Of a DNA stretch of 25,402 bases, positions 13,953 through 24,387 are shown piece after piece (position 1 is the stretch's first letter; every line of letters begins with the position of its first letter). The DNA is from an uncultured Hyphomonadaceae bacterium. Lineage in GTDB: Bacteria; Pseudomonadota; Alphaproteobacteria; Caulobacterales; Hyphomonadaceae. Where the stretch lies: the NCBI GenBank assembly GCA_964472435.1, contig CAYYNG010000001.1:1-25402 (forward strand), given 5' to 3'. The translations under genes and the position numbers were made by a program. The notes under the pieces were generated by a model. That model had not been told where the DNA came from, ran no database searches, and saw nothing but the letters and a program-made list of their open reading frames with translations.

Positions 13953-14054
13953 GGCGGTCGCTCCTCTAGCCTCCTCCAGGTAGGGGCGGGGAGGGGCGGC
14001 GGCAATCCGCGGCTTGCGGGCGAGGCGCGCATGCGTATAGTCCCGCGGCCTTAA

Positions 14055-14144
14055 GGTGAGGTGGCCGAGTGGTCGAAGGCGCACGCCTGGAACGCGTGTA
14101 GGCAGGCAACTGTCTCCAGGGTTCGAATCCCTGTCTCACCGCCA
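14055..14144 (+). tRNA. tRNA-Ser(GGA)
   Basis: 90 nt. Acceptor stem GGTGAGG/TCTCACC plus GCCA; anticodon arm CACGC-CTGGAAC-GCGTG (GGA at 14089-14091); long variable arm; T-loop GGTTCGAATCC. Confidence 0.97.
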
Positions 14145-14212
14145 GCTCCGTTTAGGCGGTGTTAACCGGCCCGTTTCATCGTCCGGGGAAAATTCCCCCA
14201 GGAGATATAGCC

Positions 14213-14704
14213 ATGTCCCGACTGACCGCCGTTCGTTTTCTGCTCGCCGGCGCCGCCGCTGCGGGCCTCGCCACGGCCGCCGCAGCCCAAGGATTGGAAA
14301 CGCGCCAGACCGTGTCCCGCATCGAATTCTCCGAAGGGCCGAACGGCGAGACGGTTCGCAGCGAAGTTTCGGCCGAGACCGTCGCGCCGGGCGATCGGGT
14401 CCGTTATCAGCTTTCGTTTTCCAACGCCGGCGCCGAACCGGCGTCAGCGATCGCCCTAGTGATGCCGATCCCGGCTGAAACTGTCCTGATCGAAGGCACC
14501 CCGGAAGCGACGCTGTCAGCGACCACCACCTATTCTGTCGATCAAGGCGTCACGTTCGCTCCGTTGGATGTGTTGGAAGTCGCCAGCGGCGAGTTGGTCC
14601 GCCCAGCCCGGGCCGGCGATGTCACCCATGTCCGCTGGGCCGTGCTCGACGATGTCGCGCCGTCTGCTACGGGATCCGTAGCGTTCGAAGCGCAAGTCCG
14701 TTAA
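14213..14704 (+). CDS. Cluster gene A: secreted single truncated DUF11-like domain protein (putative chaperone or cap)
   Basis: SD AGGAG; Sec signal ending AAAA|Q; DUF11-like PGDRVRYQLSFSNAG...PIP; C-terminus ...GSVAFEAQVR*. Confidence 0.85.
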   Translation: MSRLTAVRFLLAGAAAAGLATAAAAQGLETRQTVSRIEFSEGPNGETVRSEVSAETVAPGDRVRYQLSFSNAGAEPASAIALVMPIPAETVLIEGTPEATLSATTTYSVDQGVTFAPLDVLEVASGELVRPARAGDVTHVRWAVLDDVAPSATGSVAFEAQVR

Positions 14705-14723
14705 CCCTGTTAATTTGTAAAAC

Positions 14724-14767
14724 CAGGTGGGCTTTCAAGTTTTGTTGAAGGCTCGCCTGCCTTTTTT
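14724..14767 (+). terminator. Probable Rho-independent terminator after gene A
   Basis: 15-bp stem CAGGTGGGCTTTCAA/TTGAAGGCTCGCCTG (three G-U pairs), 6-nt loop, followed by CC and TTTTTT. Confidence 0.7.
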
Positions 14768-14887
14768 GCCCCATTTCAGCCTTGTTTTTGCAGCGGCGGC
14801 GAAAATTCCCAAGAACCGCTTAGGTTCGCTTTAATCAATTTCAGAGATTTCGTGGTTCATCAGACCCTAACCGTGGCGGATTGAACC

Positions 14888-16228
14888 ATGACGAAACGTG
14901 ATTTCCCGGCGGCTCGCTCCGCCAAACTGAGTTCAGCGGCGGTCGCCGCGCTGCTCTTCGCTGCTGGCGCGCACGCGCAGGCGACGCCTCCAGCAGACAA
15001 TAACTTCACCGACGCCGGTACGGCCGTCGAAAACACCTTCACCCTGGACTACTCGGTCGCGGGCGCCGCCCAAGACACGATCACCAATGACGACAGCCAG
15101 GCCGGTGTGGCCGGCGTGATCGTCCAAGGCACGCCGACCCAGTTCCTCGTCGACCGGATCGTCGACCTCGACCTGATCTCGATCGACCCCTCCTCGACCT
15201 TGGTCGTCGCCCCGGGCGCGCCGGCGGCGGCGGGCCGCGTCGGCCCGGCCGGCCCGGAATTGTCCTTCCTCCTCACCAACACGGGCAACGACAACCAAGC
15301 CTACTCGCTCGCCCTGACCGATGGCGCGGACAGCAACGGCGCCGATCTAAACTTCGACGCCACCCCTTACGTGATCCGCGTCGTCGTCGACGATAATGGC
15401 ACGCCGGGGTTCCAGACAACCGGCGCGACCCCGGATACGATCACCACGATCACGGAGCTTGCATCGACCAACAACGCCAACGCCGCAGCCGGCGAGTTCA
15501 CCGCCGACGTGGCGCCGGACGATACGATCCTGATCCTTGTCGAGGGCGACATTCCTGAGATCGGCGACGACCTCGACTCTGACACGAACCCGGACGATCT
15601 CGACAACACGACCGATGATCTTGTTCTGACGGCGCGGGCGCGGGATCCGAACGCGTTTGCGATCGGCGGCGCGCCGACCACGCCGGGCGCGGTGACCACG
15701 GCGTCGGCGACCAACGACCTCGCCACCGCCGACAATGTGCTGATCGATGGAACCGGCGCGACCGACGGAGCGGCCGACGGCCTCTTCTCCGCCGCCTCGC
15801 GCTTCCTGATCGCATCGCCTGACCTTGATGCGGTCAAGACGGTTCGCGCGCTTCAGGATGTCGACGGCGTTCTCGCCACCTGCGACGGGATCGCGGCCAC
15901 GGCGGATCCGGTTCCGGCCCAGGATCCGAACGTCTTCGCCACTCCGGGGACGTGCGTTGAATACATCATCCGCGTCGTGAACCAGGGCGACGCCGGCGAC
16001 ACGGCGTCGGATGCGACGGACCTCGACGTCCTCGACGTTCTGCCGGACAATCTCACCTTCGTCTCGGCCAGCACCGACGGGTTCACCGGCGGCGCCTTCT
16101 CGGGCACCCTTCCGTCCCAGGGCGATGCCTGCGACGGCACGGCCGGCACCTGCGAAGTCGACTTCGAGAACGCCACCCTGGCGAGCGGCGCGATCGGCCG
16201 CGTGATCATTCGGGCGGTTATCGGATAA
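14888..16228 (+). CDS. Cluster gene B: secreted acidic DUF11-domain protein (putative major fibre subunit)
   Basis: Signal peptide ending AHA|Q; N-terminal AGTAVENTFTLDY strand; central FLLTNTGND motif; C-terminal PDLDAVKTV...PGTCVEYIIRVVNQG...DVLP...GRVIIRAVIG*. Confidence 0.88.
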   Translation: MTKRDFPAARSAKLSSAAVAALLFAAGAHAQATPPADNNFTDAGTAVENTFTLDYSVAGAAQDTITNDDSQAGVAGVIVQGTPTQFLVDRIVDLDLISIDPSSTLVVAPGAPAAAGRVGPAGPELSFLLTNTGNDNQAYSLALTDGADSNGADLNFDATPYVIRVVVDDNGTPGFQTTGATPDTITTITELASTNNANAAAGEFTADVAPDDTILILVEGDIPEIGDDLDSDTNPDDLDNTTDDLVLTARARDPNAFAIGGAPTTPGAVTTASATNDLATADNVLIDGTGATDGAADGLFSAASRFLIASPDLDAVKTVRALQDVDGVLATCDGIAATADPVPAQDPNVFATPGTCVEYIIRVVNQGDAGDTASDATDLDVLDVLPDNLTFVSASTDGFTGGAFSGTLPSQGDACDGTAGTCEVDFENATLASGAIGRVIIRAVIG

Positions 16229-16253
16229 TCTTCGCGAGACGAGCAAAATCAAG

Positions 16254-16285
16254 AAAGCCCCGCGCCCAAGGCGCGGGGCTTTTTT
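16254..16285 (+). terminator. Rho-independent terminator after gene B
   Basis: AAAGCCCCGCGCC-CAA-GGCGCGGGGCTTT followed by a T-run. Confidence 0.9.
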
Positions 16286-16449
16286 CTTTTCAAACCCCGT
16301 GAAATTTCACTGAAATCCAAACTCAGTCATCAGGAAAATATTTCTCCGTAAATGCGATAGTAATCATGGGCCGGCAAAATAGGCCATAAAGAAACGCAAA
16401 TATAAGCGCCAAACAAGGTTAACCCGCGGCGCAATGATGGTGGTTGCAG

Positions 16450-19400
16450 ATGGGTGTTTCCGTTTGGAAACAATTGCGCGGTATGGCCGCGGCTACGCTG
16501 TTTGTAGCCGCCGGCGCCGCCATGCCCGCCGCCGCCGAATTGGGCGAAACGGTCACCAATGTTGCGCAGCTCGCCTATGATCAAAGCGGCGTCAGCTTCG
16601 AGGTCGAGACCAACCCGGCGACCTTCATAATCGAGGCGGCGCGGACGCCGTCGACCATCGAGTTTTTCCGCCTGGCGCCGGCCGACCCTAATGCGTTTGT
16701 CACTCAACTCAACGGGTCGCAGTTCAGCGTGTCGGGATCGATCACGGGGGACGATTTCGAGAACATCGACCCTTCGAGTGCGATCATGGCGCGGGAGATT
16801 GCCGGCGAGGCCGACATGATCGCGCCGGCGGAGACCTATCTCGCCGGCGAGCTGATCGTTGTTCGTGTCACCGACCTTGGGCAAAACGGCGACCCCGCCC
16901 TCATTGAAACCGTGACGGTCACGCTCACCTCCGATGCGGGCGACACGATCGCGCTCCGACTTTTCGAAAGCGGCCCGGACACGGGACAGTTCCTCGCTTT
17001 CGTGCCGAGCACGGTTGAACAGACGCCCGCCAACGATGGCCGGCTGACGACGCCGAACGGCGCCGCATTGACCGCGACCTATATCGACATCTTTGATTCG
17101 ACTGAGATTTCCCTCGACACGGCCCTGGTCGACCCGTTCGGCCGCCTGTTCAACAGCCTCACTGGCGAGCTGATCGACGGCGCCCAAGTTTCAATTGTCG
17201 ACGCGGTTACAGGCGCGCCAGCGCCGGTCTTCGGCGTCGACGCGGTTTCGCCCTATCCCTCGACCCTCGTCACCGGGTCGGTGGTGACGGATGCGAGCGG
17301 GCTTGAGTATCCGCTCGGGCCCGGCGAGTTCCTCTTCCCCCTTATGCCGCCTGGGGACTACCGGCTGGAGATCAGCCCGCCCGAGGGCTTCACCGCGCCC
17401 TCGAACCGCGCGCCGGAGACATTTACCGACCTCGACAACGCGCCCTTTGAGATCATCGACGCCTCGTTCGGGGGCTCGTTTAGTTTGGATCTGACGGGAC
17501 CCCTGAATTTCGATGTCCCGCTCGACCCGGCGGGCGAACTTGTGGTGACCAAAACGGCCGGAACAGAGGTCGCCGCCGTGGGCGACTTCGTCCGATTCGA
17601 GATCGAAGTCGAAAACCGCGGCGAACGGGGCGCGATTTTCGACCTCGTCGACGTGCTGCCCGCCGGCTTCCGGTTCCGTGCGGGGTCGGTCCGCCTCGAT
17701 GGCGTGCGCGCCGCCGACCCGGTCGTCGCGCCCGACGGCGTCACGCTGCAGTTCAAGCAGCAGGCGGTGCTCGCCGGCGAACGGCTGCGGGTCAGCTATG
17801 TCACCGAGTTCGGCGCGGGCGCGGGGCTCGGCGAGGCCGTCAACGTCGCTTTCGCCGTCAGCCCCACGGGCGAGGTGATCTCGAACCGCGGCGAAGCCGC
17901 TGTCATCCTGCAGGAGGCGCTTCTGCGGTCGGCGCTCACCATTGTCGGACGCGTCGCTGAGAACGCCTGCGATCCGGATGATCCTTGGGTTCGCGAGCGG
18001 CAAGACGGGATCGGCGTGCCAGGGGTCCGGCTCTATCTCGAAACGGGGGAGTTCACCGTCACAGACGATGACGGCCTCTACCATTTCGAAGCGATCGTTC
18101 CCGGCACCCATGTTGTTCAGGTCGACCAAGAGACGCTTCCCGAAGGTTACGAAGTCGTGGTTTGCGAGGAGAACACGCAGTATGCCGGCCGGGCGTTCTC
18201 GCGTTTCGTCGAGGGCGTCGGCGGCTCGATCCAGCGGGCGAATTTCTATCTTGAATATACGGGCGAAGGCGCGGCCGAGCCTGCGGTCGAAGAGGCCGCT
18301 GCGACGGCAGCGGATGACGAGCCGCAATACGATCGGGCGTGGCTCGACGCCCAGCCCCCAGGCGCTGTCGCATGGGCTTATCCCGACCCCGACAAGACCC
18401 CTGCGAGCCCCAGCGTCGATTTCGGCGTCTCCCATCCCGCCCAGGGCGCGCTGGCGGTGACGTTGAACGGCGAGCCGGTTCCCGCGGCGAACTATGAGGG
18501 GCGGATCCAGTCGACCGACCAGTCCATGGCGCTGAGCCGTTGGCGCGGTGTCGATATCCAGCGAGGCCGCAATGAGTTCGTCGTCGCAATCGACGGCGTC
18601 GATGTGCTGACGCGCGAGATCTGGTTCGTCGACCGCGCCGTCCGCGCCGCCCAAGTGGCGGACCAATCCATTCTCGTCGCCGACGGGCGCACGAACCCCT
18701 CCATCGCCGTGCGGCTCGAGGATGCAGGCGGCCGCCCCGTCCATGCCGGCCGCCTGGTCGAGGTGAACATCGAAGCGCCCTACCGCTTGAGGGATGCGGG
18801 CGATTTCGAGACCGCCGATCCCGTGACGGCCGCCCGCTCGGCGCGCACCAGCGTCGCGGTCGGCGAGAACGGCATCGCGCGGATCGAGCTTGAGCCGACG
18901 CTGCAAACCGGCCGCGTGCGCCTGCGCGTCACCCTGGATAGCGGCGAGGAGGAGATCACCGCCTTCCTCGAACCAGAAAAGCGGGACTGGATCCTGGTCG
19001 GTCTCGCCGAGGGCACGCTGGGCGTCACCGATCTCGGCGGCGCGGCGATTGAGGACCCTGAGACCATCCTCGACGAAGACGGCCGGATCGCCTTCTTCGC
19101 CAAGGGCGTCGTGCGCGGCGATTGGCTCTTAACCATCGCCGTCGACACGGCGGTCGGTCGCGGCGACGCCGATGGCGACATTTTTGAAGATATCGACCCG
19201 AACGCTTTCTACACGCTCTACGGCGACCGATCGTTCCAAGATCATGACGCCGAAAGCCGGTTCCCGGTCTTTGTGAGGATCGAACGCCGCACCTTCCAAG
19301 CGCTCTTCGGCGACTATGACACAGACCTCACCGACACGACGCTCGGCCGCTACTCGCGCCGTCTGTCGGGTGTGAAGACGGTCTACGAGACCGACCGGGT

Positions 19401-21501
19401 GTCGGTAAACGCGTTCGCCGCCGAGACCAATCAGGGTTTCCAGAAAGACGAGTTCGCGGCCGACGGCACGTCGGGTCCGTTCGAGCTCACGGTGGCGCCG
19501 CTCCTGCGCAATTCCGAAGAGATCTTCGTCGAAACCCGCGACCGGTTCCGCCCCGACGTGATCGTGGCGACCCAGCCGCTCGCTCGGTTCGTCGACTATG
19601 ATATCGACTTCGACACCGGCGAGGTGATCTTCCGCCAACCGATCCCGGCGACGGACGCCTCGTTCAATCCCAACGTCATCGTCGCCGACTACGAGACCTC
19701 CGAAACCGTCGATCGCGACATCGTCGCCGGCGGCCGGGCGGCGGCGCGCTTTGCGGACGGCCGCGTCGAGATTGGCGCCACCTACATCCGGCAAGAGGGC
19801 GATGAGACCGAGGAAGACACGGTCAGCGACCTCGCCGGCGTCGATCTCACCATTCAAATCGATCGCAACACCGAGCTTCATGCGGAATACGCGACGAGCC
19901 GGACCGAGACGGAGGAGGTCGGCGACGACGAACGCTCCGAGGCGATCTTGGTCGAAGTGGTCCGGCGGACCGAGCGGGTGCAGGCGAGCGCTTACTTCCG
20001 CGAAGATGAAGACGGGTTCGGCCTCGGTCAACAGACCTCGGCGACGCTCGGCGCGCGCCGCTATGGCGCTGCAACGACGGTGCAGCTCGGCGATGTCTCC
20101 GGCATCGCCGCCGAGGGGCGCAGCCGGGCCTTCGTCGACAGCGAGATCTATCGCGAAGAGAACCTCAACACCGGCGACACGCGGACCGTCGCCGAAGCGT
20201 CCGTTGGCCAAGACGGCCAACTGTTTGGGATCAGCGCCGGGGTGCGGAACGTCGTTGAGGATTTCAACGCCACCGGCGACCAGCGAACCTCGCTGGCCGC
20301 CATCGCATCCGTCCGCGGCACGATCCCGCGGTTCGGCCTCAACGTCACCGCCAGCCACGAACAGCCGCTTGGCGCGCGCGACGAATCCTCGCTTTTCCCC
20401 CAGCGCACGGTGATTGGCGTGGACAAGACCCTGACCCGGTTCGCCACCCTGAACGTGCGCCACGAGATCCTCGACGGCGCGGACGCGTCTGGCCGCAATA
20501 CGATCGCCGGCGTCACGGTTCGTCCCTGGACCGGCGCTGAGGTGCGCGCGGCGACCGACTTCGCAACCACCGATTCAGGCCGTCGGATCGGGGCGACGGT
20601 CGGCGTCGACCAAAACATCCGGATCAATGAGAACTGGTCGGCTGGCTTCGGCGTCGCCCGGCGCATTGGGATTGATAATGACGATGCGCCGCTGGACGTC
20701 GCGCCTGACGCCGCGCTTTCGCCGCTCGAGACGGCGCCGCAAAGCCCGCTGACCTTGGATGACGGCTTTACGTCTTTGACCACTGGCCTCGGCTACCAAA
20801 CGAGAGGCACGTCCACCTCGGCTCGCTTCGAGTTCCGGGACTCGGCCCTTGGTCAACGCTTCACAGGCGTTTTAGGAGGCGCACGCCAAGCCTCGGAGAC
20901 GTTGTCCTTCGCAGCCGCCGCCCGCCTGCAGCGCGAAACCTTCACTATCGAGGGCGCAGAAGCGCGACGGGATATCGATGCGCGCCTCGGCCTCGCCTAT
21001 CGGCCCCGCGGCGAGGGCGTGATCATTTTCAACCGATTGGATGTGAAGGCCGAGGAGGTCTTCAACACGACCCAGCAGTATCGGATCGTGAACAATTTCA
21101 GCGCCAACATCCTGCCGACGGATAAGATCGAGCTTGCAGTCTTCTACGGCGCGAAGTTCACCGACGCGACGTTCGATGGCGACCAATTCCAAAGCTTCGC
21201 GCAGCTTTTCGGCGGCGAGTTCCGCCACGATGTGCGCCCTTGGCTGGATGTCGGCGTCCAAGGCTCGGTGCTGCACTCGGCGACCACCGACACCTTGGAT
21301 TACTCATATGGTCCGTCGTTGGGCGCGACGCCGGCGACCAATTTTTATGTCAGATTAGGCTGGAACTTAGAAGGCTTCGTGGATCGCGACTTCGAAGCCG
21401 CCGAATTCACCCGCGAGGGCCCCTTCGTTAAGCTTCGGATAAAATTTGACCAAGATACTGTTGGCGAGCTTTTGAGGCGGGTCACGCCCAACGGGCCGTA
21501 G
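16450..21501 (+). CDS. Cluster gene C: about 1680-aa protein with N-terminal Ig-like/DUF11/SdrD-B-like domains and a predicted C-terminal outer-membrane beta-barrel
   Basis: Signal peptide ending PAAA|E; complete DUF11 domain at about 17533-17910; SdrD/Cna-B-like GVPGVRLYLETG..TVTDDDGLYHF..IVPGTHVVQVD. From about 18985 the sequence shows alternating amphipathic strands ending FVKLRIKFD. The start may be TTG 16444 or ATG 16450. Confidence 0.85.
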   Translation: MGVSVWKQLRGMAAATLFVAAGAAMPAAAELGETVTNVAQLAYDQSGVSFEVETNPATFIIEAARTPSTIEFFRLAPADPNAFVTQLNGSQFSVSGSITGDDFENIDPSSAIMAREIAGEADMIAPAETYLAGELIVVRVTDLGQNGDPALIETVTVTLTSDAGDTIALRLFESGPDTGQFLAFVPSTVEQTPANDGRLTTPNGAALTATYIDIFDSTEISLDTALVDPFGRLFNSLTGELIDGAQVSIVDAVTGAPAPVFGVDAVSPYPSTLVTGSVVTDASGLEYPLGPGEFLFPLMPPGDYRLEISPPEGFTAPSNRAPETFTDLDNAPFEIIDASFGGSFSLDLTGPLNFDVPLDPAGELVVTKTAGTEVAAVGDFVRFEIEVENRGERGAIFDLVDVLPAGFRFRAGSVRLDGVRAADPVVAPDGVTLQFKQQAVLAGERLRVSYVTEFGAGAGLGEAVNVAFAVSPTGEVISNRGEAAVILQEALLRSALTIVGRVAENACDPDDPWVRERQDGIGVPGVRLYLETGEFTVTDDDGLYHFEAIVPGTHVVQVDQETLPEGYEVVVCEENTQYAGRAFSRFVEGVGGSIQRANFYLEYTGEGAAEPAVEEAAATAADDEPQYDRAWLDAQPPGAVAWAYPDPDKTPASPSVDFGVSHPAQGALAVTLNGEPVPAANYEGRIQSTDQSMALSRWRGVDIQRGRNEFVVAIDGVDVLTREIWFVDRAVRAAQVADQSILVADGRTNPSIAVRLEDAGGRPVHAGRLVEVNIEAPYRLRDAGDFETADPVTAARSARTSVAVGENGIARIELEPTLQTGRVRLRVTLDSGEEEITAFLEPEKRDWILVGLAEGTLGVTDLGGAAIEDPETILDEDGRIAFFAKGVVRGDWLLTIAVDTAVGRGDADGDIFEDIDPNAFYTLYGDRSFQDHDAESRFPVFVRIERRTFQALFGDYDTDLTDTTLGRYSRRLSGVKTVYETDRVSVNAFAAETNQGFQKDEFAADGTSGPFELTVAPLLRNSEEIFVETRDRFRPDVIVATQPLARFVDYDIDFDTGEVIFRQPIPATDASFNPNVIVADYETSETVDRDIVAGGRAAARFADGRVEIGATYIRQEGDETEEDTVSDLAGVDLTIQIDRNTELHAEYATSRTETEEVGDDERSEAILVEVVRRTERVQASAYFREDEDGFGLGQQTSATLGARRYGAATTVQLGDVSGIAAEGRSRAFVDSEIYREENLNTGDTRTVAEASVGQDGQLFGISAGVRNVVEDFNATGDQRTSLAAIASVRGTIPRFGLNVTASHEQPLGARDESSLFPQRTVIGVDKTLTRFATLNVRHEILDGADASGRNTIAGVTVRPWTGAEVRAATDFATTDSGRRIGATVGVDQNIRINENWSAGFGVARRIGIDNDDAPLDVAPDAALSPLETAPQSPLTLDDGFTSLTTGLGYQTRGTSTSARFEFRDSALGQRFTGVLGGARQASETLSFAAAARLQRETFTIEGAEARRDIDARLGLAYRPRGEGVIIFNRLDVKAEEVFNTTQQYRIVNNFSANILPTDKIELAVFYGAKFTDATFDGDQFQSFAQLFGGEFRHDVRPWLDVGVQGSVLHSATTDTLDYSYGPSLGATPATNFYVRLGWNLEGFVDRDFEAAEFTREGPFVKLRIKFDQDTVGELLRRVTPNGP

Positions 21502-21505
21502 GCGC

Positions 21506-23716
21506 ATGCGGGACATCCTCTTAAACATTCGATCGGCGGCCGGCGCGCTGATCGTGGCGGCGGCGGGTCTCGCGGCCACGAATCCCGCCGCCGCCCAGGC
21601 GGTCGGGACACTGGATTGGTCGAGCCAGGGACTGACGAGCGCCGCGCCCCTGCCCAATCCGTTCATCGTCAGCTCGGGCGGTCGAACGCTAACCATAACC
21701 ACCTCGACCCAAGGCGCGGGGCCCGGGATCGCCACTGTCTACGCCGACTTCGTAACCTTCAATACCGGCGCGCTCTCCGGGCCCGGCGGCATCGGCGTCC
21801 TGGCGTTCAACAATAATAATGTGGACAATAATGAACGCATCATCTTCGAGATGACGTTCGACGAACCGGTCGCCAACCTCGCCTTCGACGTCCAGGACAT
21901 CGACCAGACCGGCGCGGGCGACGATGCGGTGGTTGTGAGCTTCGACGACGGCACGGGCTTTCAGACGCTGCGGGGCACGCCATTTGTCTCGCTGTCGGGA
22001 GCCTCGATCATCGAAGACAACGCGCCGGGTTTCGACGGCTGGGAAGGGAACGGCGCCTCCGGCGTCGCCGACAGCGCCGCCGATCTGCAGATCGATTTCG
22101 GCGCGCAGGAAGTGATCGCCGTGCGCATCGAGTTGTTCAACGCAGACGACTCGCCCGCCGACCCCGGCAACCAATTCGCAGGCATCTCCGATATCAGCTG
22201 GACGACCCCGCCCGGCGCCGACCTGTCGCTTTCGCTTGTCGCCAGCGACGCCGATGCGACGCTAGGCGACCCCACGGCGCTGACGCTGACGGTGATGAAC
22301 GACGGCGCGCTGGCGACCAGCGGCGTCGCCGTGTCGCTGCCGCTCGCACCGAACCTGCGGTACGCCTCCGCCAATGGCGGCGGCGCTTATGATCCGGTCG
22401 CCGAAATTTGGTCCGTGCCCGGCGCGCTCGCCGCCGGCGAGAGCCAGACCCTGATTGTGAACACGACGGTGAATTCGACGGCCTCGAGTTTCACTATTCG
22501 CGGCGAGGTGACGGCGAGCGCCGTCGCCGACCCGGACTCAGTCCCGGGCAACGCGGCCGCGGCGCCCTTTGAAGACGACACCGCGAGCGTCGTCTTTACG
22601 CCAGGCTTCGGCGGCGGCGGCACGACGCCTCCGCCCCTTGGCTGCGGCGCGGCGTCTCAATTCTTTGAGTGGGAGAGCAATCCTTATCCGCCGGGATCCC
22701 TCTCCCAGACCTACACCGTCAATGGATTGGGCTTCGATTTCGCCTTCACCGGCGCGACCGACGATTTCGTTCCCATTGGAGCGCTCGCCAATTCGCCTGG
22801 GACCGACGACGCCTTCACGGGCGGCATCACGGCGGACAATTCGCTGCTGTTTGCGGCCGACTACGACACCCTGGGCGAGACCATCACGCTGACGATCGAT
22901 ATCGGCGCGAGCGGGGTGGGCGTCAGCGAGCTTCAGTTTGTGATCTTCGACGTCGATTTCGGCGCCGGCACGTTCCAAGACGAGATCACGATCACCGGCT
23001 CGCTGGGCGGAGGCGCGACCATTGTTCCGCTGCTTACGCCGAGCGCGTCTAACGTCGCAAGCGGATCCGTCGCCCAGGGCGGTTCGGTCGCAGTGGGCTC
23101 CACAAGCGGCGACGCTAACGTAACGGCCACTTTCTCCCAGGCCGTCGACCAAGTTCGGATCATCTACGACAATGGCCCCGACGCGCCTGCGCTCCCGGGT
23201 CTCCAGGCGATCGCCCTCCACGATCTGGAATATTGCGAGGCGCTGCCGCCGCCGGACCTCTCCGCGGTGAAGACGACGGCGGTCTTCAATCCGGACAATC
23301 CGTCGAATCCGGGAAACAGCGTATTCGCCGTGCCCGGCAACGATGTGACCTACACGATCACCGTCACGAACAGCGGGGACGGGGTGACGGATCCAAGCTC
23401 GATCCTGCTCATCGACGAGCTTCCGGCCGAGGTCGAGTTCTTCAATGGCGATGTCGACGGCCCCTTGGGGGCTGAAACCGCAGCCGTCGCCTTCAACGAC
23501 CAGTCCTCGGGTCTGACATTCGACGCCGTAACCGACGTGCGGTTTTCGAACACGACGAGCCGGCCCCCGAGCTTCCTCGCCTGCAGCTATTCTCCTCTGC
23601 CGGCGCCGGCCTACGACCCCGCCGTTCGATTCATCTGCCTTAACCCGAAAGGGGTGATGGCCGCGGGCGACCCCGATCCGAGCTTTTCCCTCACCTTCCG
23701 CGCCCGGATTAAGTGA
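21506..23716 (+). CDS. Cluster gene D: secreted adhesin-like protein with two related beta-rich domains, one full and one truncated DUF11 domain (putative tip adhesin)
   Basis: Signal peptide ending PAAA|Q; 4 bp after the gene C stop; full DUF11 at about 22214-22600; C-terminal PDLSAVKTT...PGNDVTYTITVTNSG...DELP...SFSLTFRARIK*. Confidence 0.87.
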   Translation: MRDILLNIRSAAGALIVAAAGLAATNPAAAQAVGTLDWSSQGLTSAAPLPNPFIVSSGGRTLTITTSTQGAGPGIATVYADFVTFNTGALSGPGGIGVLAFNNNNVDNNERIIFEMTFDEPVANLAFDVQDIDQTGAGDDAVVVSFDDGTGFQTLRGTPFVSLSGASIIEDNAPGFDGWEGNGASGVADSAADLQIDFGAQEVIAVRIELFNADDSPADPGNQFAGISDISWTTPPGADLSLSLVASDADATLGDPTALTLTVMNDGALATSGVAVSLPLAPNLRYASANGGGAYDPVAEIWSVPGALAAGESQTLIVNTTVNSTASSFTIRGEVTASAVADPDSVPGNAAAAPFEDDTASVVFTPGFGGGGTTPPPLGCGAASQFFEWESNPYPPGSLSQTYTVNGLGFDFAFTGATDDFVPIGALANSPGTDDAFTGGITADNSLLFAADYDTLGETITLTIDIGASGVGVSELQFVIFDVDFGAGTFQDEITITGSLGGGATIVPLLTPSASNVASGSVAQGGSVAVGSTSGDANVTATFSQAVDQVRIIYDNGPDAPALPGLQAIALHDLEYCEALPPPDLSAVKTTAVFNPDNPSNPGNSVFAVPGNDVTYTITVTNSGDGVTDPSSILLIDELPAEVEFFNGDVDGPLGAETAAVAFNDQSSGLTFDAVTDVRFSNTTSRPPSFLACSYSPLPAPAYDPAVRFICLNPKGVMAAGDPDPSFSLTFRARIK

Positions 23717-23757: not shown

Positions 23758-24387
23758 ATGGCGAAGGTGAAGATTTGCGGGGTGGTCTCGATCGCCCAGA
23801 CCAAGTTCTTGTCAAACGCAGGCGCGGACTGGATCGGGCTGAATCTCGTTTTAAACAGCCCGCGCCAGATCTCCGAGCGAGATCTCGAGCTGTTTTCGCG
23901 ACTGGCGGATCCGACGCCGACGGTCGCCATCGTGGCCGACCCTTGCGACGGACTGATCCATGTGATCTCCGACACGGGGATCGCGGCGATCCAACTTCAC
24001 GGCGCCGAAACGCCGGACCGGGTCGCGGAGGTCAAAGCGCTTTCGGGGCTGGAGGTCTGGAAGGCGATCGGCGTCTCCGAAGCGGCGGATCTTGAGGCCG
24101 CGGCCGAATATTCCGCCGCCGACCGCTTGTTGATTGATGCGAAGCCGCCGAAGGGTGCGACGCGGTCCGGCGGGCACGGCGCCCCATTCGATTGGACGGT
24201 CCTCGAGGGCTGGACATCGCCGAAGCCTTGGATTCTCGCCGGCGGCCTGACACCAGACAACGTCGCCGAAGCGATTCGCCTGACGCGGGCTGACGCTGTC
24301 GATGTCGCCTCTGGCGTCGAAGGCGCGCTGGGCCTAAAGGACAAGGCCCTGGTCGAAGCGTTTATCGCTGCGGCGAAGGCGGCTTGA
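23758..24387 (+). CDS. trpF: Phosphoribosylanthranilate isomerase
   Basis: [38 protein letters not shown]......VDVASGVE. Confidence 0.95.

Follow-up and report, generated by a model that had tools for sequence, protein, structure and literature searches.

Domains of the DUF11 family, recently renamed CLIPPER, are found in fibrillar adhesins. In the crystal structure 9IFR the domain has nine strands, and a lysine of the first strand is bonded to an asparagine of the penultimate strand of the same molecule with the help of an aspartate; many other CLIPPER domains do not have this bond (PMC12617251). Here we analyse four neighbouring genes for surface proteins, A, B, C and D, in a stretch of 25,402 nucleotides from an uncultured Hyphomonadaceae bacterium (assembly GCA_964472435.1, contig CAYYNG010000001.1, positions 1 to 25,402 of the forward strand; this whole stretch is called the window in the following). 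Judged from their sequences, we lean towards the view that these genes encode a CLIPPER isopeptide domain that is naturally split between proteins, such that N-terminal tags lock into the catchers of other chains. The proteins would probably click together onto a giant outer-membrane anchor and perhaps do so covalently and without an enzyme. In the literature, we found no published description of a natural split CLIPPER system.

Split isopeptide domains are known as laboratory products: SpyTag/SpyCatcher, SnoopTag/SnoopCatcher and DogTag/DogCatcher have been made from CnaB-type domains of Gram-positive adhesins (PMC8878318). These engineered pairs, like the one proposed here, consist of a catcher with a lysine and a catalytic acid and of a tag with the partner residue, which react spontaneously, but the pair of the cluster would be natural, CnaA-like (CLIPPER) and Gram-negative, with the catcher at the C-terminus and the tag at the N-terminus. 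A first-pass annotation of the window had likened the cluster to SpyTag/SpyCatcher; with its two strands, the proposed tag is closer to DogTag/DogCatcher, in which the DogTag is hairpin-like. Natural fibres with strand donation and a covalent lock have also been described. BsaA (TasA family) of Clostridium perfringens forms 'exchange and lock' fibres in which an N-terminal strand is donated and the chains are locked to each other by an isopeptide bond, without sortase (10.1101/2024.11.04.621531), and the thread filaments of Sulfolobus are built by donation of an N-terminal strand, with a bond between the N-terminal amine and an asparagine (PMC9715654). Both differ from the cluster in fold (TasA-like and thread subunit, respectively) and in the residues that are bonded, and both lack a barrel anchor in the outer membrane and a modular catcher shared by diverse cargo proteins. 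The sortase pili of Gram-positive bacteria likewise have covalent isopeptide links between immunoglobulin (Ig)-like subunits, also with CnaA/CnaB isopeptide domains; however, these links are made by sortase at LPXTG, whereas the cluster proteins end in ...RAVIG, ...RARIK and ...EAQVR, without such a motif. The bacterium's own genome, which is 88% complete, has no match to sortase (PF04203).

The four genes are on the same strand and each product has a Sec signal:

14213..14704, plus strand: gene A, 163 amino acids, Sec signal, one CLIPPER-like domain; ends in ...AFEAQVR (stop)
14888..16228, plus strand: gene B, 446 amino acids (P0001); ends in ...VIIRAVIG (stop)
16444..21501, plus strand: gene C, 1685 amino acids counted from the TTG at 16444; the database protein begins at the ATG at 16450
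21506..23716, plus strand: gene D, 736 amino acids; ends in ...LTFRARIK (stop)

By role, this gene content is similar to that of chaperone-usher pili (Fim, Pap, Csu), in which a small protein of Ig-like fold is accompanied by a major subunit that combines an N-terminal donor with an incomplete Ig domain, by a large protein of the outer membrane and by a tip adhesin that is acceptor only. Donor-strand complementation, with which the sequences of the cluster agree, would be a principle common to both, but chaperone-usher pili donate one strand, while the cluster would donate two, has a donor on the anchor and would likely be locked covalently. Pfam scans of A and C gave no match to a PapD-like chaperone (PF00345) or an usher (PF00577), and the genome, at 88% completeness, did not yield an usher either.

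B consists of the signal peptide, an N-terminal element with an invariant asparagine, an Ig-like middle domain and a truncated CLIPPER end domain. C has a signal peptide, a similar N-terminal Asn element, an Ig-like stalk that includes one complete CLIPPER domain and about 830 amino acids of a putative outer-membrane barrel. In D, the signal peptide is followed by one DUF11 domain that lacks the triad (239-346), placed between two other domains, and by the C-terminal acceptor. The elements on which the argument turns are as follows (all residue numbers of C count from 16444):

15008..15157, plus strand: B residues 41-90, donor ('tag'), with the Asn strand TDAGTAVENTFTLDY, a loop and the final-strand equivalent TQFLVDR
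15818..16225, plus strand: B residues 311-446, acceptor ('catcher'), a seven-strand CLIPPER-like end domain without the Asn strand
16537..16638, plus strand: C residues 32-65, donor ('tag'), ELGETVTNVAQLAY-DQSG-VSFEVETNPATFIIEA, with the N39 codon at 16558-16560
17539..17928, plus strand: C residues 366-495, complete CLIPPER domain with its own triad, K370 at 17551, D403 at 17650 and N467 at 17842
18991..21498, plus strand: C residues about 850-1685, putative outer-membrane beta-barrel anchor, assigned from language-model neighbours
23228..23713, plus strand: D residues 575-736, acceptor ('catcher') module, K589 at 23270 and D637 at 23414, ends in FRARIK

All four proteins match the family: with NCBIfam model TIGR01451 (cut-off 24), A scores 29.4, B 24.7, C 28.9 and D 27.7 (at 604-650). 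Pfam DUF11 (PF01345, cut-off 24.6) gives 67.3 for D, through its internal domain, and leaves A (24.1), B (24.4) and C (24.0) just below the cut-off. In A, B and D, the end domain lacks the full set of CLIPPER strands, of which 9IFR has nine. What they are missing can be read from C 366-495, the complete copy within the cluster, which has the same motif of first-strand Lys, Asp and penultimate-strand Asn as 9IFR and is the only domain here that has the triad in one piece. A profile of this domain (137 columns from 60 homologues; hhalign) aligns with A through columns 6-91, up to 5 residues before the end of the protein (94.7% probability, E 5.8e-8), and with B 346-445, thus up to the next-to-last residue, through columns 11-95 (95.5% probability, E 1.5e-8). 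Both alignments break off at the F strand of the end domain, while the internal copy of C is full, and nothing in A or B corresponds to the final 42 columns of the profile, which cover the Asn strand and the last one. With the end domain of D, the profile aligns only through its middle (columns 18-77, E 1.9e-5), and the truncation of D therefore rests on an alignment of 120 C-termini, taken from the 299 database matches of a search with the D end domain. Termination at the F strand is without exception: it is found in 50/50 A sequences, in 120/120 D-type sequences and in 39/39 B sequences, none of which extends beyond it.

The residues of the isopeptide triad are strictly conserved in the same families. 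K370, D403 and N467 of the complete domain as well as N39 of the N-terminal element are invariant in 60/60 full-length C homologues, and N49, K317 and D383 are invariant in all 39 aligned B homologues, at a mean column identity of 36%. K317 (15836-15838; the D383 codon is at 16034-16036) is the sole lysine of mature B. In the D-type end domains K589 and D637, together with N622 and D677, are kept in 120/120 sequences, and there is no invariant Asn downstream of D637 in any alignment position of these 120 end domains. The end domains of B and D hence have Lys and Asp without a conserved Asn, and they differ in this from 9IFR, a single domain that holds all nine strands and the whole triad: here the Asn strands are at the ends of other polypeptides, and the bond would be between chains. 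The first-pass annotation had already described the complete domain of C, the premature ends of the A, B and D domains and the Lys and Asp of the acceptors; its coordinates and residues are all correct when re-derived from the window, and the homologues bear these three points out.

A has the truncated fold without the reactive residues. Q32 is at the position of the Lys and M84 at that of the Asp, and mature A has no lysine at all; among 50 aligned members of the A family, none has K at the Lys position, where Q is found in 34/50, and just 1/50 has D at the Asp position. Any complex of A would then be non-covalent, and A is a candidate for a non-covalent cap or holder of the N-terminal elements. 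The example of A invites the question whether the whole system does without a bond: the tags of one chain could complete the catchers of another, as happens in chaperone-usher or type V pili, with Lys, Asp and Asn serving in packing or hydrogen bonding. That A keeps the fold without Lys and Asp indicates that complementation without a bond is evidently useful, and many CLIPPER domains have no bond (PMC12617251). Yet the bond-less CLIPPER domains of the cluster, A and the internal DUF11 of D, drift at all three positions, whereas the Lys, Asp and Asn discussed here are invariant across families at 30-50% identity. We consider a purely non-covalent system very unlikely.

The end domain of D is a new finding in itself, as it is a modular C-terminal module of at least 120 proteins. 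In all 120 aligned sequences it is located at the extreme C-terminus and ends in a FRARIK-like sequence, and it follows upon front parts that are unrelated to each other: P-domain, GEVED, CARDB, discoidin, Big and beta-helix. The bacterium's own genome encodes a second, unlinked secreted cargo with a D-type catcher on contig C82 (a 496-amino-acid open reading frame (ORF) on the minus strand), which has kept Lys and Asp and ends in ...FSVAFDTIVD. An ORF of 105 amino acids on contig C85 (2724-2825) corresponds to the last third of the module and ends in FRARIQ; it is possibly a broken gene or an assembly artefact. A near-invariant FFNGDIDG motif (23444-23458, residues 647-651; N647 in 116/120, D649 in 117/120 and D651 in 113/120) is found in the D catcher and is absent from the B catcher; together with the invariant D677 it looks like a calcium-binding loop. 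P0424 and P0435, two proteins of about 730 amino acids from other genomes, have a B-like tag at the N-terminus (…AAGTEITNNVTVNYKVG…FTVDRKI…) and also a catcher of D-type, and types of tag and catcher have thus been shuffled between the families.

The segment that is absent from the end domains has a likely counterpart at the mature N-termini of B and C. In B, the tag begins a few residues past the signal-peptide cleavage site; AGTAVENTFTLDY covers 15014-15052, the codon of N49 is at 15032-15034, and T41, A43, G44, N49, F86, V88, D89 and R90 are invariant in 39/39 homologues. In C, the Asn strand ELGETVTNVAQLAY is encoded by 16537-16578 (Leu at 16540), and G34, N39 and A41 of the tag are invariant in 60/60 homologues. 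The giant tandem CLIPPER proteins, which are the closest multi-repeat relatives of A, show what such a segment looks like within an intact chain: the consensus of their unselected repeat junctions reads ...GTVTFTVRVD-SPLPA-DGTVITNTATLD..., and the stretch that follows the F strand in these repeats (...TVTFTVRVD...ADGTVITNTATLD...) matches TDAGTAVENTFTLDY, the mature N-terminus of B, by motif. A canonical repeat junction and a short B homologue can be matched piece by piece:

Canonical repeat junction: Asn strand GTLLRNTVTLSY, loop ADANGNSLPDETDYA, last strand DVTVTAP, first strand of the next domain VMTVSK
Short B homologue: Asn strand GTSVSNSFTLDY, loop DVGGVAQTQIDTSGTPT, last strand TFTVDRK, first strand of the next domain VDVTVS

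This match indicates that the donated element consists of two strands (B 41-90, C 32-65), and the sequences place the cut of the split domain in the loop after the F strand. The first-pass annotation had put a single missing strand at the mature N-termini of B and C: the location holds at the level of the motif, but the segment comprises two strands, the penultimate and the last, of about 35-50 residues. The N-terminal motif cleanly separates four classes of proteins:

C, tag only: N-terminal motif in 109/117 proteins
B, tag plus catcher: N-terminal motif in 74/75 proteins
D-type cargo, catcher only, with Lys and Asp: N-terminal motif in 3/117 proteins
A, dead catcher: N-terminal motif in 3/69 proteins

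Two of the three D-type exceptions that carry the motif have a B-like start.

From these data, the following mechanism can be proposed. The catcher, carried by B and the D-type proteins and in a dead version by A, would be a seven-strand domain at the extreme C-terminus that has kept the catalytic Asp and, on its first strand, the bond-forming Lys. The tag would supply the two strands that this domain lacks, the penultimate one with the Asn and the last one, and in both C and B it follows directly upon the cleavage site of the signal peptide. After Sec export, the tag would insert into the catcher of another chain and complete its beta-sandwich; the Asn would be brought beside Lys and Asp, and a Lys-Asn isopeptide bond would form spontaneously. 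C, a giant outer-membrane barrel anchor with a tag only, would capture the D-type proteins, which have a catcher only and would present diverse binding domains as cargo or tips, while B, having both, could be an adaptor or the repeating shaft of a C-(B)n-D chain; A may hold or cap tags reversibly. The analysis shows the truncation, the conserved residues, the modularity of the catcher and the co-occurrence, whereas the binding in trans, the covalent bond, the order of the subunits, the polymerisation of B and the side of the outer membrane are inferred. Whether this extends to a general, enzyme-free covalent display or fibre system of Gram-negative bacteria, in which a portable catcher on hundreds of surface proteins is captured by the tag of the anchor, B polymerises head to tail through the same reaction and A is a reversible tag holder, is a more doubtful proposal, to which we give somewhat less than an even chance; such a system would represent a new class of pilus or adhesin assembly.

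The assignment of C as the anchor is based on its C-terminal part, of which about 830 amino acids have no sequence match in Pfam or in the Protein Data Bank (PDB). Its language-model neighbours are clusters of stand-alone 'outer membrane proteins' of about 850 amino acids, with scores of 0.97-0.98. The last strand of C (...GPFVKLRIKF) is followed by a conserved 17-residue tail and is not the end of the protein.

Whether a triad is completed within or between chains differs between the pairs. C has just three invariant lysines, K370, which is paired with N467, and K887 and K1667, both in the barrel part; as C has no unpaired invariant Lys outside the barrel and the D-type proteins almost never have an N-terminal element, the triad of the C tag and the D catcher can be completed only between chains. 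The first-pass annotation had stated that completion is possible only in trans: this applies to the C tag and the D catcher, which have no partner within their chain, and for B it is a matter of inference, since cis and trans are both conceivable. Completion in trans is the best reading of the sequences for the tag of C with the catcher of D or B.

For B, the alternative is that tag and catcher belong to one circularly permuted CLIPPER domain with a large insert, closed by an intramolecular N49-K317 staple like the two-piece D2 of RrgA/GBS104-type adhesins, so that the C tag and the D-type catchers alone would join chains, if at all. Discontinuous isopeptide domains with inserts are known (GBS104-like Ig, 137-211 and 587-717, Table 1 of PMC12617251), and the tag and the catcher of B are invariant within one chain. 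However, the linkers on either side of the middle domain are short, and the strong terminator of its own that follows B (in 2/4 loci) suggests that B is made in excess over C, as expected for a repeating subunit. The predicted structure also speaks against a staple. AlphaFold2 models mature B with a mean predicted local distance difference test (pLDDT) score of 84.5 and a predicted template modelling (pTM) score of 0.75, with seven strands in the end domain by DSSP; structure alignments set the domain limits at 52-273 and 274-409 (mature numbering). When B is folded without its end domain, as residues 38-310, the first 40 residues retain their pLDDT values (86/96/97/96) and their DSSP pattern. 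The model thus packs the N-terminal element onto the middle domain and not onto the end domain, which argues against self-completion of B. We regard an intramolecular staple in B as improbable.

The same model belongs to four observations that weigh against a split domain. First, the N-terminal element of B, which the model places on the middle domain with very high confidence, may be an integral part of that domain rather than a free tag. Second, AlphaFold2 confidently folds the end domain alone as seven strands, with a pLDDT of about 92-95 for this C-terminal domain. Third, homology between the tag and the Asn strand cannot be demonstrated statistically with profiles this short and is seen at the level of the motif. 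A profile of canonical two-strand segments ranks the N-terminus of B first (E 0.016) and that of C third among 17,715 ORFs of the genome, a ranking that is partly circular because the segments were chosen by motif; a motif-free inter-repeat profile from the giant CLIPPER proteins aligned poorly and retrieved neither B nor C, and we used only its consensus. By hhalign, the internal two-strand segment of C matches the N-termini of B and C with E values of 0.24 and 0.012, which is not significant, and Pfam scans of the isolated N-terminal pieces gave no match, but had no power, as the positive control C 440-500 remained unmatched as well. Fourth, B, the N-terminal part of C and the D-type module are found in exactly the same 3 of 401 sampled genomes of the class, a co-occurrence that speaks for a joint system, but these genomes belong to two genera and count as only two independent lineages. 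In the complete genome G235, the cargo gene and A-B-C are on different contigs.

A rival explanation is a sorting signal: the end domains would be complete export or sorting domains in the manner of the C-terminal domains of type IX secretion, recognised by the barrel of C or by another machine, and the N-terminal motifs of B and C would be the first strands of the N-terminal domains to which they belong, with no completion across chains. Like the module described here, the type IX C-terminal domains are conserved and Ig-like and form the very end of many surface proteins that are unrelated and whose genes are unlinked; they are cleaved and replaced by a lipopolysaccharide anchor. The constant position of the module at the extreme C-terminus of diverse cargo, the AlphaFold2 models, in which the B end domain folds without extra strands and the N-terminal element packs on the middle domain, and the non-significant homology of the tag strands all agree with this explanation. 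There is, however, no sequence relation to the type IX domains, and the module of the cluster keeps the isopeptide residues and has a matching tag. A sorting signal leaves unexplained why the Lys and Asp of an isopeptide bond are invariant (39/39 and 120/120) beside a lost Asn strand, why an invariant Asn is present in the canonical post-F-strand motif at the mature N-termini of two co-occurring families and why both residues have been lost in A, which has the same truncated fold. On balance a sorting function seems unlikely to us. A split domain could also accommodate the packing seen in the model: as a CnaA-type bond joins opposing sheets, one face of the tag could pack on its own chain and the other cover the core of a catcher.

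Other computational approaches were less informative. A complex prediction for mature A and mature B with C 31-238 as partner (29-236 of the database protein) reached a score of 0.61 and a control in which B was replaced 0.71; it was not used as evidence. Mutual information from 73 B sequences (effective number about 40) was dominated by phylogeny. Structure searches with the middle domain of B (mature 52-273) returned generic Ig-like matches with Z scores of about 8 or less, among them chaperone-usher pilins with 6.3-7.2 in a wide search. Mature B (14981-16225) is extremely acidic, with 64 Asp and Glu, 10 Arg and one Lys, and its end domain has four conserved cysteines (C332, C356, C415 and C422), which suggests two disulfides.

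The cluster is flanked by a gene for tRNA-Ser (anticodon GGA; 14055-14144, plus strand), about 70 nucleotides 5' of gene A, and by trpF/trpB, which start at 23758; at the related locus L001 the trpF-trpB neighbourhood is likewise 3' of C. Two features separate the genes:

14724..14768, plus strand: terminator-like hairpin with T-run, 3' of gene A
16254..16290, plus strand: strong intrinsic terminator, GCCCCGCGCC / GGCGCGGGGC followed by a T-run, 3' of gene B

The gap between the stop codon of C and the start of D is 4 nucleotides, and the transcription units are likely A, B and C-D. Such units would yield A and B in excess of C and D, with C and D coupled to each other; this expression argument is weak, as the terminator after B is found at 2/4 loci only, with a similar site in L001 and none seen in L003 or L015. 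The related loci L001, L003, L004 and L015 have A-B-C as their conserved core, while an adjoining D is optional. Database names of homologues point to Hirschia litorea, Parasphingopyxis marina, Henriciella and Hellea as culturable carriers. In L004 (7187-11996), the C homologue appears as three ORFs whose translation contains X residues, which probably reflects a defect of assembly or sequencing and not a real split of the gene, and a second B-like gene (324 amino acids) precedes A. A single search of public sequencing runs of any kind, with no dedicated search of RNA, found the region 14000-21000 of the window only in DNA runs, all from one study of metagenomes of stromatolites and microbial mats (58-73% of the sampled words); this origin fits a biofilm lifestyle of the carrier.

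Should tag and catcher indeed react with each other, the cluster would encode the first natural split isopeptide domain of the CnaA type. This would provide Gram-negative bacteria with a way to tie adhesins covalently to an outer-membrane anchor without sortase and would add a principle of pilus and adhesin assembly to the chaperone-usher, type IV, type V and sortase systems. As the modular catcher is shared by at least 120 unrelated cargo proteins, the idea can be tested directly on short recombinant pieces, and the module could also give new, mutually orthogonal pairs for protein ligation. The carriers are marine Alphaproteobacteria that form mats and biofilms, and fibres of this kind could matter for their attachment.

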